Shown here: positions 1 to 6,492 of the stretch, one piece after another
Position numbering within the stretch: the first letter of the stretch is position 1
Layout of the letters: each line of letters begins with the position of its first letter
Virus record (IMG/VR): IMGVR_UViG_2537561930_000009
Reading direction: 5' to 3' (one strand)
DNA length: 6,492 nucleotides
Source: a virus
Taxonomy: Duplodnaviria > Heunggongvirae > Uroviricota > Caudoviricetes
Notes under the pieces: generated by a model
What the model was told of the DNA's origin: nothing
What the model saw: only the letters and a program-made list of their open reading frames with translations
The model's database searches: none
Translations under genes and position numbers: made by a program

Positions 1-10
1 TTTAGTGTAA

Positions 11-116
11 TGTTCTCAGATTGCGGCTTTAATTCTTGATTTGTGTTCTTTATTATGCTTTTGTCATTAACTTGTTTTTATGTTCTTTATTTGTGTTCTT
101 GGGTTGGTAAGGTTGG
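11..116. repeat. Short direct repeats in AT-rich leader: TGTTCT(T/C) at 11-17, 44-50, 81-87 and 94-100, ATTTGTGTTCTT at 39-50 and 89-100, and GGTTGG at 102-107 and 111-116; function unknown (iteron-like or protein-binding sites possible)
   Basis: Read directly from the sequence; no coding frame covers the region. Functional assignment is speculative. Confidence 0.25.
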
Positions 117-289
117 GAGAATTAATAGAGAAAACGTATCTCATTGATGATTTTTATCATGTTTCCCTAGTTTTACATGATTTCCTTTCTTAAAAAAAGA
201 TGATGAATATCAATTAGTTATTATTATATTGTTGTTCGTTTCATGCATTTCGGGAGGAGAACAAAAGATGATTTGGCTTAAATATTCAC

Positions 290-367
290 CTTTGCGTTTT
301 TCGTTTTGCTTTGCCTTTTTCATGCAAATTTGCTAGAAATAAGCAAAGATTTAATTATTAAGCAAAG
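290..367 (+). promoter_or_regulatory. Putative sopA promoter/operator with repeated CTTTGC/GCAAAG hexamers and a 10-bp palindrome
   Basis: CTTTGC at 290-295 and 309-314, GCAAAG at 343-348 and 362-367, perfect palindrome GCAAATTTGC at 324-333. Candidate -35 TTGCTA (330-335) and -10 TAATTA (353-358) with 17-bp spacing. GGAG at 377-380 sits 8 nt before the sopA ATG. In F plasmid, SopA autorepresses via CTTTGC repeats in its own promoter (established knowledge); exact sites here are inferred. Confidence 0.45.
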
Positions 368-388
368 TTACAAGCTGGAGATGACAGT

Positions 389-1555
389 ATGTCTTTGAAA
401 AAGTTATTGCAAGATTGTGTTACGAGAGGTCAAGAAATGACCAAAGCAATTGCTATCGCTCAATTCGGTGATGATAGTCCTGAAGCTCGGCGTATCACCC
501 GCCGATGGGGTATAACTGAAGTAGCAGATTTAATTGGTGTAACTCCTCAAGCAATTAGAGATGCTGAAAAGAGCGGGCGTTTACCTGCACCTGACTTTGA
601 AATGAGAGGAAGAATTGAACGTCGTGCTGGTTATACCATAGATCAAATCAACAGTATGCGAGCAGTTTTTGGCAACCCAAACCAACGACCACAAGATAAA
701 AACCCTGTTGTGCTTGCCGTTATGTCACACAAAGGCGGCGTTTATAAAACATCGTCTGCGGTGCATCAAGCTCAATGGTTAGCATTACAAGGTCATCGTG
801 TTCTTTTGGTTGAAGGTAACGATCCTCAAGGCACGGCCTCTATGTATCACGGTTATGTTCCTGATTTACATATCCATGCCGAGGATACTTTACTGCCATT
901 TTACTTAGGAGAACGCGATAACGCTGAATATGCTATAAAGCCAACATGTTGGCCTGGGCTAGACATTATCCCTAGCTGCCTAGCTTTACATCGTATAGAA
1001 ACAGATCTCATGCAATATCATGCTCAGGGTAAATTGCCTCATCCTCCACACCTTATGCTACGCGCAGCTATTGAATCAGTTTGGGATAACTACGATGTTA
1101 TCGTTATAGATAGTGCTCCGAACCTCGGTACAGGAACCATTAACGTTGTTTGTGCCGCTGACGTTATTGTTGTTGCTACACCTGCAGAATTATTTGATTA
1201 CGCTTCTGTTCTGCAGTTTTTCACAATGCTTCTCGATCTATTGGAAAGCGTTGACCTAGGTGGATTTGAGCCAACCGTTCGCTTACTTCTGACTAAATAT
1301 AGTCTCACTACAGGGAATCAATCACGATGGATGGAAGAACAAATAAGAAATACATGGGGATCAATGGTATTACGTCAGGTTGTACGCGTTACCGATGAAG
1401 TAGGTAAAGGCCAGATAAAAATGAGAACAGTATTTGAACAAGCAGCAAACCAACGTTCAACATTGAATGCATGGAGAAATGCTGTTTCTATATGGGACCC
1501 TGTTTGCCGAGAAATTTTTGATGATCTAATAAAACCTCGCTGGGAGAACGAATAA
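389..1555 (+). CDS. sopA: Plasmid partition ATPase SopA (ParA family, type Ia)
   Basis: 388-aa ORF with deviant Walker A KGGVYKTS and an N-terminal extension typical of autoregulatory type Ia ParA. Long stretches match the remembered F-plasmid SopA (e.g. EMTKAIAIAQF, LLVEGNDPQGTASMYHG, WPGLDIIPSCLALHRIE, VIDSAPNLG, RMRTVFEQA). SD GGAG lies 8 nt upstream. Confidence 0.95.
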   Translation: MSLKKLLQDCVTRGQEMTKAIAIAQFGDDSPEARRITRRWGITEVADLIGVTPQAIRDAEKSGRLPAPDFEMRGRIERRAGYTIDQINSMRAVFGNPNQRPQDKNPVVLAVMSHKGGVYKTSSAVHQAQWLALQGHRVLLVEGNDPQGTASMYHGYVPDLHIHAEDTLLPFYLGERDNAEYAIKPTCWPGLDIIPSCLALHRIETDLMQYHAQGKLPHPPHLMLRAAIESVWDNYDVIVIDSAPNLGTGTINVVCAADVIVVATPAELFDYASVLQFFTMLLDLLESVDLGGFEPTVRLLLTKYSLTTGNQSRWMEEQIRNTWGSMVLRQVVRVTDEVGKGQIKMRTVFEQAANQRSTLNAWRNAVSIWDPVCREIFDDLIKPRWENE

Positions 1556-2520
1556 TGAAACAGCGCTCTCTTCTGAAAAATGCTCCAGATATTAATCGCA
1601 TTATGAGTAATAATCATCATGCCCCTGAACATCAGCCCGTATCACCTATAGTTGGTGATTTAAAACGTCAACTGAGTTCATTAACCGGTAACAGCATAAC
1701 TTTGCCAGTATGCGGACGTAATGTTAACTTTAAGTTAGAGACAATTCCCGCAGATAAAGTTGAAATGGCAACAATGGTATGGCTAGGTAATGAACGCGAT
1801 CAAGATTTATTAAATGAATCCTCTCTAGCCGATTTAATCCCATCTTTTCTAACGTCTGGACAACAAAATCCAGCTTTCGCCAGAAAAGTATCTGGAATCG
1901 TTGAAGTCGCTGACGGCTCACGTAGAAGAAAAGCAGCGATATTAACAGGATGTGACTATCGCGTCTTAATTGGTGATCTCGACGATGAACAGATGCATTG
2001 GTTATCCCAAATTGGTAACGATTATAGGCCTATTAGTGCATACGAAAGAGGAAAGAGATACTTACGCAAGCTAAATGACTTTGATGGTAACGTTAAAGCA
2101 TTAGCCGAGGCTGAAAATATAGATAGAAATATTATCACTCGCTGTATCAATACAGCTGGTCTACCAAAAGATATATTAGCTATCTTCAATCATCCAGGAG
2201 AACTGTCAGCTCGTGCTGGAGATTCTTTGTTTAAGGTTTACAAAAAAAACATGGCTGCCATGAGCAATGCTGCTCATCATCTTCTGGCAATTAAAAAAAA
2301 CGGCGAGGATTTAGAATCTTCACGGATTATACAAATACTATCTGACTCTGTTCTGGTTGGCGACGAGGAAAAAACAAAAGACGAGAAAAAATATGGGGAA
2401 GGGATTACTGCTAGATATAAAGGTAATTTTGTAACTATAAAAATTGATAGCCGAAAAATATCTAAAGAAATACTAAGCAGAATTGAGTTGTTACTAGAGG
2501 AACAATCTACTGATAATTAA
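1555..2520 (+). CDS. sopB: Plasmid partition centromere-binding protein SopB (ParB family)
   Basis: 321-aa ORF whose start overlaps the sopA stop (TAATG, translational coupling). Matches remembered F SopB motifs (ITLPVCGR, WLGNERDQDLL, LIPSFLTSGQQNPAF, VADGSRRRKAA, DDEQM, GNDYRPISAYERG, ITRCINTA, HPGELSAR). Confidence 0.93.
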   Translation: MKQRSLLKNAPDINRIMSNNHHAPEHQPVSPIVGDLKRQLSSLTGNSITLPVCGRNVNFKLETIPADKVEMATMVWLGNERDQDLLNESSLADLIPSFLTSGQQNPAFARKVSGIVEVADGSRRRKAAILTGCDYRVLIGDLDDEQMHWLSQIGNDYRPISAYERGKRYLRKLNDFDGNVKALAEAENIDRNIITRCINTAGLPKDILAIFNHPGELSARAGDSLFKVYKKNMAAMSNAAHHLLAIKKNGEDLESSRIIQILSDSVLVGDEEKTKDEKKYGEGITARYKGNFVTIKIDSRKISKEILSRIELLLEEQSTDN

Positions 2521-2524
2521 GAAG

Positions 2525-2547
2525 TATCCCCTGCATTGCAGGGGATA
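2525..2547. terminator. Perfect palindrome TATCCCCTGCA-T-TGCAGGGGATA between convergent sopB and the invertase; likely bidirectional intrinsic terminator (alternatively a protein-binding site)
   Basis: 11-bp perfect arms read directly; effective stem about 9 bp with a 5-nt loop; flanked by T-containing tracts on both strands (TTGATTTAT on plus). Sits in the 49-bp gap between two convergent stop codons. Confidence 0.4.
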
Positions 2548-2569
2548 TTGATTTATGGTTGTACTCCAG

Positions 2570-3124
2570 TCAATGATTCCCAGCCGGAAACCTGCGGTAA
2601 AGCGTGGATAAAGCAACATCGAAGATAATCGCTATCTGTTTACGTGAAACACCATTCACAATAAGCCTTCCGACCTGTTCCCATTGCTCGGGTGCCAGTT
2701 TTGAGCGGCGCCCCCCTATCCTACCGTTAGCCCTTGCCACCGCTAATCCTGCACGCGTTCTTTCAATAATATTTTCCCGCTCCATCTCTGCGACCGCACT
2801 CAGCATTGTGTAGGCAAAGCGGCCAATTGATGTGCTAATTTTTATTCCTTCTGTAACAGAAATAAATTCAATGTTGTTTGATAAAAAATAGTTAAGCAAT
2901 TCAACAAGATGAATCAGAGAACGCCCCATTCTGTCCAGCTTCCAGACAATAACCGTATCACCCGGTCGTAACGCTTTTATCAGCTTATCCAGTCCTGGTC
3001 GTTTTGACTTCGCGCCAGATATTTTATCTTCAAAAATCCGGTCACATCCTGAACTCCTGAGCGCTTCCAGTTGTAACTCCAAATTCTGGTCAAAAGTTGA
3101 CACTCTCGCATAGCCGTATTGCAT
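2570..3124 (-). CDS. Serine recombinase, DNA invertase of the Gin/Cin/Pin/Hin family
   Basis: 184-aa ORF. N-terminal catalytic motif GYARVSTFDQ with the putative active-site serine at residue 9, then IFEDKISG, VWKLDRMGRS, AEMEREN.IERT, GRIGGRR and a C-terminal HTH (GVSRKQIAIIFDVALSTLYRRF). Lies adjacent to an inverted-repeat-bounded segment. By eye roughly half of residues match remembered Gin/Cin/Pin. Confidence 0.93.
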   Translation of the reverse strand: MQYGYARVSTFDQNLELQLEALRSSGCDRIFEDKISGAKSKRPGLDKLIKALRPGDTVIVWKLDRMGRSLIHLVELLNYFLSNNIEFISVTEGIKISTSIGRFAYTMLSAVAEMERENIIERTRAGLAVARANGRIGGRRSKLAPEQWEQVGRLIVNGVSRKQIAIIFDVALSTLYRRFPAGNH

Positions 3125-3188
3125 ACTTTCTAACCTGCAATTGTTGCTGAAAGCGGGAAAAAATATCGTTCAGACGACACGGAGGCAA

Positions 3189-3214
3189 TTCTCAAAAACC
3201 TCGGTTTACAGGAA
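3189..3214. repeat. Left crossover site (gix/cix-like), TTCTCAAAAACCTCGGTTTACAGGAA, predicted central dinucleotide at 3201-3202
   Basis: Near-identical to the remembered Mu gix site (TTATCCAAAACCTCGGTTTACAGGAA). Its reverse complement recurs at the right window edge; the perfect inverted repeat spans 3194-3222 versus 6464-6492 (29 bp). Confidence 0.85.
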
Positions 3215-4363
3215 ACGGTAAATCAGGCTTCTGGCGCATTACAGAAAAACCAGAACGGCGCAGATATTCCCGATAAAAAACTATTCCTGCGTAATATCGG
3301 CACAACAAATTCAACAACCATGTCTTTTAGTGGTGGTACAGGATGGTTCAGGCTGGCAACTGTAACCATGCCCCAGGCCAGTTCCGTGGTTTACATAAGC
3401 CTGATTGGTGGTGCAGGGTATAACGTTGGCTCCCCGCATCAAGCAGGCATCTCTGAGCTGGTTCTTCGTGCGGGAAATGGGAATCCAAAAGGTCTTACCG
3501 GTGCGTTATGGCGACGGACATCGGTTGGACTTACTAATTTTGCATGGGTGAATACATCCGGTGATACCTATGATGTTTATGTTGAAATAGGTAATTACGC
3601 CACACGTGTTAATATTCAGTGGGATTATACCAGTAACGCCAGCGTAACGATTCATACATCACCATCTTATACAGCGAATAAACCAACAGGCCTGACAGAT
3701 GGAACTGTATATGTAATTTACAGTTCGCACATTAAACCGACTGCTGCTGAGGTTGGGGCGTTGTCATTATCTGGCGGTCAATTGAATGGTGCACTGGGCA
3801 TCGGAACATCCAGTGCTCTTGGCGGTAACTCGATTGTTTTGGGTGATAATGACACCGGATTCAAACAGAATGGTGATGGTATTCTGGATGTTTACGCTAA
3901 TAGTCAGCGAGTATTCCGCTTTAAGAATGATGCAGCTTTTTCTTTAAAAAAATTGCTGATCGGAGATAGTAAAACTTTTTCATTATCAAGTTCAAACACA
4001 TCCACTAAGAACGTAATCTTTAATCTATGGGGTACCTCTACTCGTCCTGTTGTAGCTGAATTAGGTGATGATTCAGGATGGCATTTCTATAGCCAGCGAA
4101 ATACAGATAACTCGGTAATATTTTCTGTTAACGGTCAGATACAGCCCAGCAACTGGGGGAATTTTGATTCACGCTATGTAAAAGATGTTCGCCTGGGTAC
4201 ACGTGTTGTTCAGACTATGCAAAAAGGTGTGATGTATGAAAAATCAGGTCATGTAATTACAGGGCTTGGCATTATTGGCGCTGTTGATGGTGATGACCCA
4301 GCAGTATTCAGACCAATACAAAAATACATCAATGGCACATGGTATAACGTCGCACAGGTGTAA
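3194..4363 (+). CDS. Tail-fibre C-terminal variable region, arm 1 (Sv-like); 5'-partial exon that needs fusion to the constant part by inversion
   Basis: The frame is open from 3134 and runs through the crossover site (encoding KNLGLQETVN) in frame into the 347-aa ORF listed at 3320..4363; a stop at 3131-3133 closes the frame upstream. Ends ...RPIQKYINGTWYNVAQV, resembling remembered side-tail-fibre C-termini. No plausible independent start, consistent with Mu S / P1 S organisation. Confidence 0.85.
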   Translation, partial: KNLGLQETVNQASGALQKNQNGADIPDKKLFLRNIGTTNSTTMSFSGGTGWFRLATVTMPQASSVVYISLIGGAGYNVGSPHQAGISELVLRAGNGNPKGLTGALWRRTSVGLTNFAWVNTSGDTYDVYVEIGNYATRVNIQWDYTSNASVTIHTSPSYTANKPTGLTDGTVYVIYSSHIKPTAAEVGALSLSGGQLNGALGIGTSSALGGNSIVLGDNDTGFKQNGDGILDVYANSQRVFRFKNDAAFSLKKLLIGDSKTFSLSSSNTSTKNVIFNLWGTSTRPVVAELGDDSGWHFYSQRNTDNSVIFSVNGQIQPSNWGNFDSRYVKDVRLGTRVVQTMQKGVMYEKSGHVITGLGIIGAVDGDDPAVFRPIQKYINGTWYNVAQV

Positions 4364-4894
4364 GTGATGCAGCATTTAAAAAACATCAGATCTGGAAATC
4401 CAAAAACAAAAGAACAATATCAGCTAACAAAGAATTTTGATGTTATCTGGTTATGGTCCGAAGACGATAAAAACTGGTATGAGGAAGTGAAAAACTTTCA
4501 ACCAGACACAATAAAGATTGTTTACGATGAAAATAATATTATTGTCGCCATCACCAAAGATGCATCCACGCTTAACCCTGAAGGTTTTAGCGTCGTTGAG
4601 GTTCCCGATATTACAGCCAACCGACGTGCTGATGACTCCGGGAAGTGGATGTTTAAGGATGGAGCTGTGGTTAAACGGATTTATACGGCAGACGAACAGC
4701 AACAACAGGCCGAATCACAAAAGGCCGCATTGCTTTCCGAAGCTGAATCAGTCATCCAGCCGCTGGAACGCGCTGTCAGGCTGAATATGGCAACAGACGA
4801 GGAGCGCACACGACTGGAAGCATGGGAACGCTACAGTGTTCTGGTCAGCCGTGTGGATACGGCAAATCCTGAATGGCCACAAAAGCCTGAATAA
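4364..4894 (+). CDS. Tail-fibre assembly protein (U/Tfa family), arm 1
   Basis: 176-aa ORF immediately after Sv (GTG at 4364, ATG at 4367). Resembles remembered Tfa chaperones ([28 protein letters not shown]...[22 protein letters not shown]). N-terminal and central parts are shared with the U' remnant on the other arm. Confidence 0.9.
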
Positions 4895-4899
4895 AAATT

Positions 4900-4919
4900 A
4901 AGGCCCGATAGCGGGCCTT
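4900..4919. terminator. Bidirectional intrinsic terminator hairpin between convergent U and U' (AAGGCCCG-ATAG-CGGGCCTT)
   Basis: 8-bp GC-rich stem with 4-nt loop; A-run upstream (TTTTT on the minus strand after the hairpin) and GTTTCATT downstream on plus; sits between the two convergent stop codons. Confidence 0.5.
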
Positions 4920-4922
4920 GTT

Positions 4923-6221: not shown

Positions 6222-6492
6222 CCCATTTAAGAGTCATCAGGTCTTTTGTTGTGGTGCTCTGGCGGCTTCTCCATTTGAAATATTCATTGCCGTTGTCGCC
6301 TGTTTCAAACCACATGAATGAATCAGTGTCGCTGTCGGCATTATTTTTAAAACCAATCTTTGCCCAGTCAGTATTTCTAACCCAGGCAAGGATTGAGTCG
6401 TTTTCAAAAGTAAGCCCACCGGACAAGGTATCGCCATTCTTTTGCACGGCGTTCCTGGCCCTGTTTACCGTTTCCTGTAAACCGAGGTTTTT
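6187..6492 (-). CDS. 3' end of the tail-fibre gene as currently joined (constant part beyond the window, reading through the right crossover site); terminates at TAG 6189..6187
   Basis: Minus-strand frame is open from the window edge: KNLGLQETVNRARNAVQKNGDTLSGGLTFENDSILAWVRNTDWAKIGFKNN...FMWFETGDNGNEYFKWRSRQSTTTKDLMTLKWDALSVLVKALF*. These motifs resemble remembered side-tail-fibre proteins. 5'-partial at the window end. Confidence 0.75.
   Translation of the reverse strand, partial: KNLGLQETVNRARNAVQKNGDTLSGGLTFENDSILAWVRNTDWAKIGFKNNADSDTDSFMWFETGDNGNEYFKWRSRQSTTTKDLMTLKWDALSVLVKALF
6472..6492. repeat. Right crossover site (gix/cix-like), TTCCTGTAAACCGAGGTTTTT..., truncated by the window end; predicted central dinucleotide at 6484-6485
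   Basis: Reverse complement of the left site; matches the remembered gix sequence TTCCTGTAAACCGAGGTTTTGGATAA over the visible 21 bp. Confidence 0.85.

Follow-up and report, generated by a model that had tools for sequence, protein, structure and literature searches.

The lack of a sopC-like centromere array behind sopB in the 6,492-nt stretch of viral DNA analysed here (referred to as the window) is the normal, published and already known organisation of the N15 family. The window covers the telomere-side end of an N15-like linear phage-plasmid. A joint explanation, in which an N15-like phage-plasmid has its SopB-binding boxes dispersed outside the window and a transcription terminator in the short gap behind sopB, is very probably correct. 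The absence of the array beside sopB is expected for this family and is no sign of a broken or novel partition system, and the significance of the result beyond correct annotation is slight.

The gene sopA (389-1555, plus strand) encodes a type Ia ParA ATPase with an N-terminal HTH, which matched the ParA-type ATPase families AAA_31/CbiA in Pfam; residues 42-68 gave a weak MerR-type HTH match (E 5.5e-4) of 20.1 bits, below the Pfam cutoff of 28.2 bits. The gene sopB (1555-2520, stop codon included, plus strand) encodes a centromere-binding ParB-family protein with a match to Pfam SoPB_HTH (E 7e-25), and the sopA stop and the sopB start overlap at 1555 in the ORF list. Over their full length, SopA and SopB were 93% and 73% identical to gp28 and gp27 of N15, of which they are the orthologues, while the identity of SopB to F SopB was 49%. 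Upstream, the sopAB promoter/operator (290-367, plus strand) contained three direct SopA-binding hexamers with a 19-bp pitch (CTTTGC at 290-295 and 309-314, ATTTGC at 328-333) and two inverted GCAAAG hexamers (343-348 and 362-367), each 28 bp from its partner. This is the full hexamer layout of the F and N15 ParA operators, and it fits the three-ParA-dimer model described for them (PMC8465637). The window therefore shares with F sopABC the type Ia architecture, in which a single operon encodes first a Walker ParA ATPase carrying an N-terminal HTH and then a SopB of the SoPB_HTH type. Homologous SopA and SopB proteins and the CTTTGC operator arrangement, with its 19-bp pitch and inverted partners 28 bp off, are likewise common to both.

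Type Ia centromeres usually lie directly downstream of sopB. In the window, sopB is followed by a gap of exactly 49 bp (2521-2569) that separates it from a convergent invertase gene and contains no SopB box; the ORF coordinates (sopB stop at 2520, invertase 3' end at 2570) confirmed the gap size given in the initial annotation. A search with TRF at a minimum score of 30 yielded two trivial rows of 19-23 bp in the window, none near sopB, and a search allowing up to three mismatches gave no match to the F box TGGGACCACGGTCCCA or to the N15 box GTGCGACCACGGTCGCAC anywhere in the whole 6.5-kb window. When plasmid F was searched with the same kind of pattern as a positive control, nine boxes at an exact 43-bp spacing were recovered from about 133 bp past sopB. 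This also confirmed the F box sequence given in the initial annotation, whose claims that no sopC-like array follows sopB and that the gap holds a single palindrome unlike the F SopB box both held, with no box within three mismatches and one copy of the palindrome in the related replicon pZ1323HEC0355-3. The tandem 43-bp repeats with TGGGACCACGGTCCCA that follow sopB in F at a distance of about 133 bp are what distinguishes F sopABC from the window, in which such an array directly downstream of sopB was not present. Accordingly, the proteins and the operator are of the F type but the adjacent tandem array is missing, whereas both the proteins and the residence of the locus are those of N15.

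The N15-type residence was evident from the relatives of the window. Searches of the phage, plasmid and E. coli collections gave no record covering at least 80% of the window, but its sop half (25-2565) was 98% identical to many E. coli and E. albertii "plasmids" of 46-48 kb. The nearest complete replicon, pZ1323HEC0355-3, was 97.8% identical over window positions 25-3197, invertase junction included. It carries genes for a protelomerase, a 1331-aa CyRepA1 RepA of the N15 type, cI/Cro/Q, a RelE/ParE toxin-antitoxin and lysis together with lambda-like head and tail genes, and its gene order matches that of N15. All ten contigs with the exact SopB of the window had the invertase directly downstream, and those extending the other way carried a TelK-family protelomerase and a 1331-aa RepA. 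Window positions 1-24 aligned about 50 bp from the telomere palindrome CCATTATACGCGCGTATAATGG of pZ1323HEC0355-3, pAH01-1 and PhiR46_1, placing sop beside the telomere of a protelomerase-type linear phage-plasmid. The locus therefore resembles N15 Sop in its orthologous SopA and SopB, in the position of the operon by a telomere and a protelomerase gene, and in the layout of the SopA operator hexamers.

Several minor features of the telomeric side were also observed. The window lacks about 23 bp that pZ1323HEC0355-3 has after position 24. Four TGTTCT repeats (at 11, 44, 81 and 94) are located between the telomere and sopA, similar to the (A/G)TGTTC(T/C) repeats that flank telRL in N15. The window looks like a whole contig, one end of which was produced by a break at a hairpin telomere and the other by a break at the inversion repeat. 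A 20-kb contig with an identical SopB contained a self-inverted duplication (L005, 5126-11668) centred at about 8400 with a local alignment score of 3195, because the assembler had evidently read round a covalently closed hairpin telomere; this inversion gives independent support for a linear, hairpin-ended replicon. It also explains the second copy of the gap palindrome in this contig, which was rejected as a true extra copy.

The relatives whose SopB is identical to that of the window or differs by one residue carry TGCGACCNNGGTCGCA as four to six single copies located 8-20 kb from sopB, at places equivalent to those in N15. N15 itself has one box inside repA (33480), one after Q (35931) and two more at 41125 and 45562, and these four are the published IR1-IR4, as determined by checking the sequences in Table 4 of PMC7205306 against the N15 record. 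The dispersed IR1-IR4 sites of N15 Sop were described by Ravin & Lane (1999) and Grigoriev & Lobocka (2001), as cited in PMC7205306. In pZ1323HEC0355-3, exactly four TGCGACCACGGTCGCA boxes were present, at 11211 (repA), 13654 (after Q), 18033 and 21073, where 0.27 would be expected by chance; the flanks of the first two were homologous to those of IR1 and IR2, which makes them orthologous sites in the two replicons. Five perfect boxes and one degenerate box were found in pAH01-1 and five boxes in PhiR46_1, all of them on the replication/late arm, so that the relatives have four to six boxes compared to four in N15. The repA box equivalent to IR1 was present in five out of five contigs that carry the exact SopB of the window and reach repA. 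Compared to the F box, the box type of the relatives has C for G at position 3 of the 16-bp box, mirrored in the other half-site (position 3 as written here is position 4/4' in the numbering of PMC2910045).

Whole-replicon box searches of pZ1323HEC0355-3, pAH01-1 and PhiR46_1 detected dispersed single sites on the other arm and none beside sopB. The initial annotation had proposed that the centromere is elsewhere, possibly dispersed as in N15, and had suggested searching the whole replicon for 16-bp inverted repeats and comparing synteny; when this check was run in the relatives, the boxes were located at places equivalent to IR1-IR4, and the proposal is well supported to the extent that close relatives with the same SopB represent the window. 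By the same comparison, the replicon of the window itself probably carries N15-type boxes outside the window.

The residues with which SopB would recognise such boxes were also compared. Arg190, Arg195 and Arg219 of F SopB contact bases (PMC2910045), and their counterparts in the window are Arg191, Arg196 and Arg220. The neighbours of Arg191 are Asp190 and Asn192 as in N15, in contrast to Ser and Lys in F. Each half-site of the N15 box differs from that of the F box at a single position, with the specificity mapping to the HTH (PMC2910045); the IR sites are used by N15 SopB, whereas F SopB is non-functional with them (PMC7205306, PMC2910045). Compared to N15, the HTH of the window has four changes (G188N, V194I, N195T and M198I), three of them F-like, and the C-terminus of SopB is 21 residues shorter. 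Since the HTH differs from that of N15 at four positions, the specificity assigned to the SopB of the window rests on its co-occurrence with the boxes in pZ1323HEC0355-3, the SopB of which differs from that of the window by one residue, I32M, outside the HTH. Binding of this SopB to N15-type boxes is accordingly a prediction.

In the arrangement that we propose, SopB would load on single 16-bp boxes of the form TGCGACC-NN-GGTCGCA, one base per half-site off the F box, and these boxes would be spread along the opposite genome arm, with sites within repA, behind Q, behind the gene-51 homologue and close to the lysis/DUF4406 genes. From the telomere inwards, the order is a SopA-autoregulated promoter, sopA, sopB, the hairpin, and a variable tail-fibre module with the invertase and an invertible segment. 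As a bidirectional rho-independent terminator, the hairpin would end transcription of sopAB as well as of the convergent invertase gene, and it would mark the edge of the exchangeable tail-fibre module.

The module beyond the gap begins with a gene for a 184-aa serine DNA invertase of the Gin/Cin/Hin type (2570-3124, minus strand), which matched Pfam Resolvase and HTH_7 and is named hin or recombinase in the relatives. The invertible tail-fibre segment is bounded by a left crossover site (3194-3222, plus strand) and a right crossover site (6464-6492, minus strand) that form a perfect 29-nt inverted repeat, the right one lying exactly at the end of the window. This differs from N15, in which genes 25/26 are the downstream neighbours of sop. 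The junction between the sop module, which includes the hairpin and TTATGGTTG, and the invertase/tail-fibre cassette was placed at 2561-2565, where the match ends: most plasmid matches end at 2565, and the cassette matches of other phages begin at 2563. The sopB gene of pAH01-1 is followed, at a distance of 32 bp, by the end of a tail-fibre assembly gene whose last codons are TTATGGTTG; this sequence is retained in the window at 2553-2561. The retention of TTATGGTTG past the hairpin indicates that the tail-fibre module was swapped, with the joint just past the hairpin. The same cassette adjoins an unrelated repA in the 48.5-kb phage-plasmid of ATCC 25922. As a side observation, the cassette was about 90% identical to those of unrelated phage-plasmids and phages, including ATCC 25922 (L017, 4001-4562), Yersinia vB_YpM and Mu/P1/D108-type segments, while the sop side of the joint belongs to the N15 lineage, which makes 2561-2565 a sharp mosaic joint.

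The palindrome in the gap, TATCCCCTGCA-T-TGCAGGGGATA at 2525-2547, has perfect 11-nt arms and a 1-nt centre and forms the core of a hairpin at 2523-2549. It is the longest perfect palindrome of the window, and 11-nt arms occurred in only two of 200 mononucleotide shuffles. Most likely it acts as an intrinsic terminator in both directions, for sopAB (plus strand) and for the invertase gene (minus strand), as predicted by the terminator scan and the RNA fold. The terminator scan flagged it on both strands: the plus-strand hairpin has 12 pairs (six GC), a loop of 3 nt and the tail GATTTATGGT, and the minus-strand one has 10 pairs followed by CTTCTTAATT as its tail. The sopB-sense RNA had a minimum free energy of -21.2 kcal/mol (z = -3.86), and the fold of the minus strand was modest (z = -2.08; 7/200 shuffles). 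The elements of an intrinsic terminator were all present: a GC-rich stem of at least 5 bp, a loop of 3-8 nt and a T-rich tail directly 3'. The U-tract past the hairpin is broken up (UAUUGAUUUAU), so the efficiency of termination is uncertain. In Rfam at E <= 1, the sole match was a chance-level one to IS009 far from the gap, and no known RNA family covered the hairpin.

Like the window, N15 has no array after sopB and a hairpin between sopB and a convergent gene. The N15 stem-loop AAAAAGCCCCACATACGTGGGGCTTTT (22085-22113) lies between gene 26 and sopB and is annotated in the N15 record as a 'putative rho-independent transcription terminator'. The two hairpins have a like position after the sopB stop, between convergent genes, and share a GC-rich stem and A-rich/T-rich flanks, with fold z-scores that are strong on both strands; their sequences are unrelated, and the T-run of the window is weaker and interrupted. 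In PhiR46_1, the GC-rich hairpin GACCCCATCAGTTATAGATGGGGTC followed by a T-run occupies the same position. Three unrelated hairpins at one conserved position, together with the same N15-type box in all, fit a terminator and not a SopB site. We suggest that the locus be annotated as an N15-type Sop locus, whose TGCGACCNNGGTCGCA boxes should be looked for within repA, past Q and in the late region, and the gap palindrome as a putative bidirectional terminator.

That the palindrome is mainly something else, either a site for another protein or a recombination joint for tail-fibre exchange with termination only incidental, is unlikely. Its distance of about 15 bp from the module junction at 2561/2562 and its imperfect U-tract would favour such a role, but the N15 record describes the equivalent stem-loop as a putative terminator, neither a further copy nor a partner site turned up in pZ1323HEC0355-3 beyond the one copy after sopB, and a second hairpin with a T-run is present in the window at 4899-4920, between two convergent tail-fibre assembly genes. 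A hairpin with a T-run is a generic arrangement between convergent genes.

A broader proposal, for which we hold out little probability, is that modular exchange in N15-like phage-plasmids also makes use of the scattered SopB boxes, and of the hairpin next to sopB, as joints. The idea arises from the box number of four to six, the position of the hairpin about 15 bp from the module joint, and boxes in pAH01-1 that share flanks. If it were true, centromere sites would help shape the accessory gene content besides their part in segregation. The boxes concerned include those at 30697, 32481 and 32701 in pAH01-1 and those at 17794 and 18014 in PhiR46_1. Two of the pAH01-1 boxes have identical 15-nt right flanks, cgctcctgaatacat, and bracket a segment of about 1.8 kb with accessory ORFs; the degenerate box AGCGACCACGATCGCA adjoins one of these flank-sharing boxes.

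It is highly improbable that the palindrome at 2525-2547 is the centromere or one of several, that is, a novel single SopB site where F has sopC. It does lie directly downstream of sopB in the usual place of a type Ia centromere, and the perfect 11+11 palindrome travels with the sop module and is conserved in many relatives. However, the palindrome resembles neither the F nor the N15 box and occurs in a single copy per replicon, whereas replicons with the same SopB carry four to six canonical N15 boxes elsewhere. N15 and PhiR46_1 have kept N15-type boxes while their hairpins at this position are unrelated, and the base-contacting residues of SopB are the ones used to read sites of the GGGACC/GCGACC type. 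The terminator reading of the palindrome is preferred on these grounds.

The initial annotation also suggested that the recombination module had come to lie between sopB and its centromere. This reading, in which a sopC-like array once adjoined sopB, was rejected and has hardly any probability left: the homology break at 2561-2565 and the occurrence of the cassette in unrelated phages show that the region after sopB was clearly swapped, but pAH01-1, PhiR46_1 and N15 (gene 26), which are free of the invertase and have other modules after sopB, likewise lack a box or array there, the next gene coming straight after sopB, and the box searches of pZ1323HEC0355-3, pAH01-1 and PhiR46_1 yielded dispersed single sites on the other arm only. 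Relatives with or without the invertase have no array by sopB, and since none has a box or array between sopB and the tail-fibre genes, the swap exchanged tail-fibre modules and separated nothing from sopB.

Within the invertible segment, the plus-strand tail-fibre set (3194-4363 and 4364-4894) was intact. The minus strand carries an alternative tail-fibre C-terminus (from about 6463 to 5460) and an assembly gene (5457 to 4923), each of which needs a frameshift to be read; these frameshifts could reflect gene decay or sequencing error. In the assembled orientation, it is the damaged minus-strand set that faces the constant part of the fibre gene beyond 6492.
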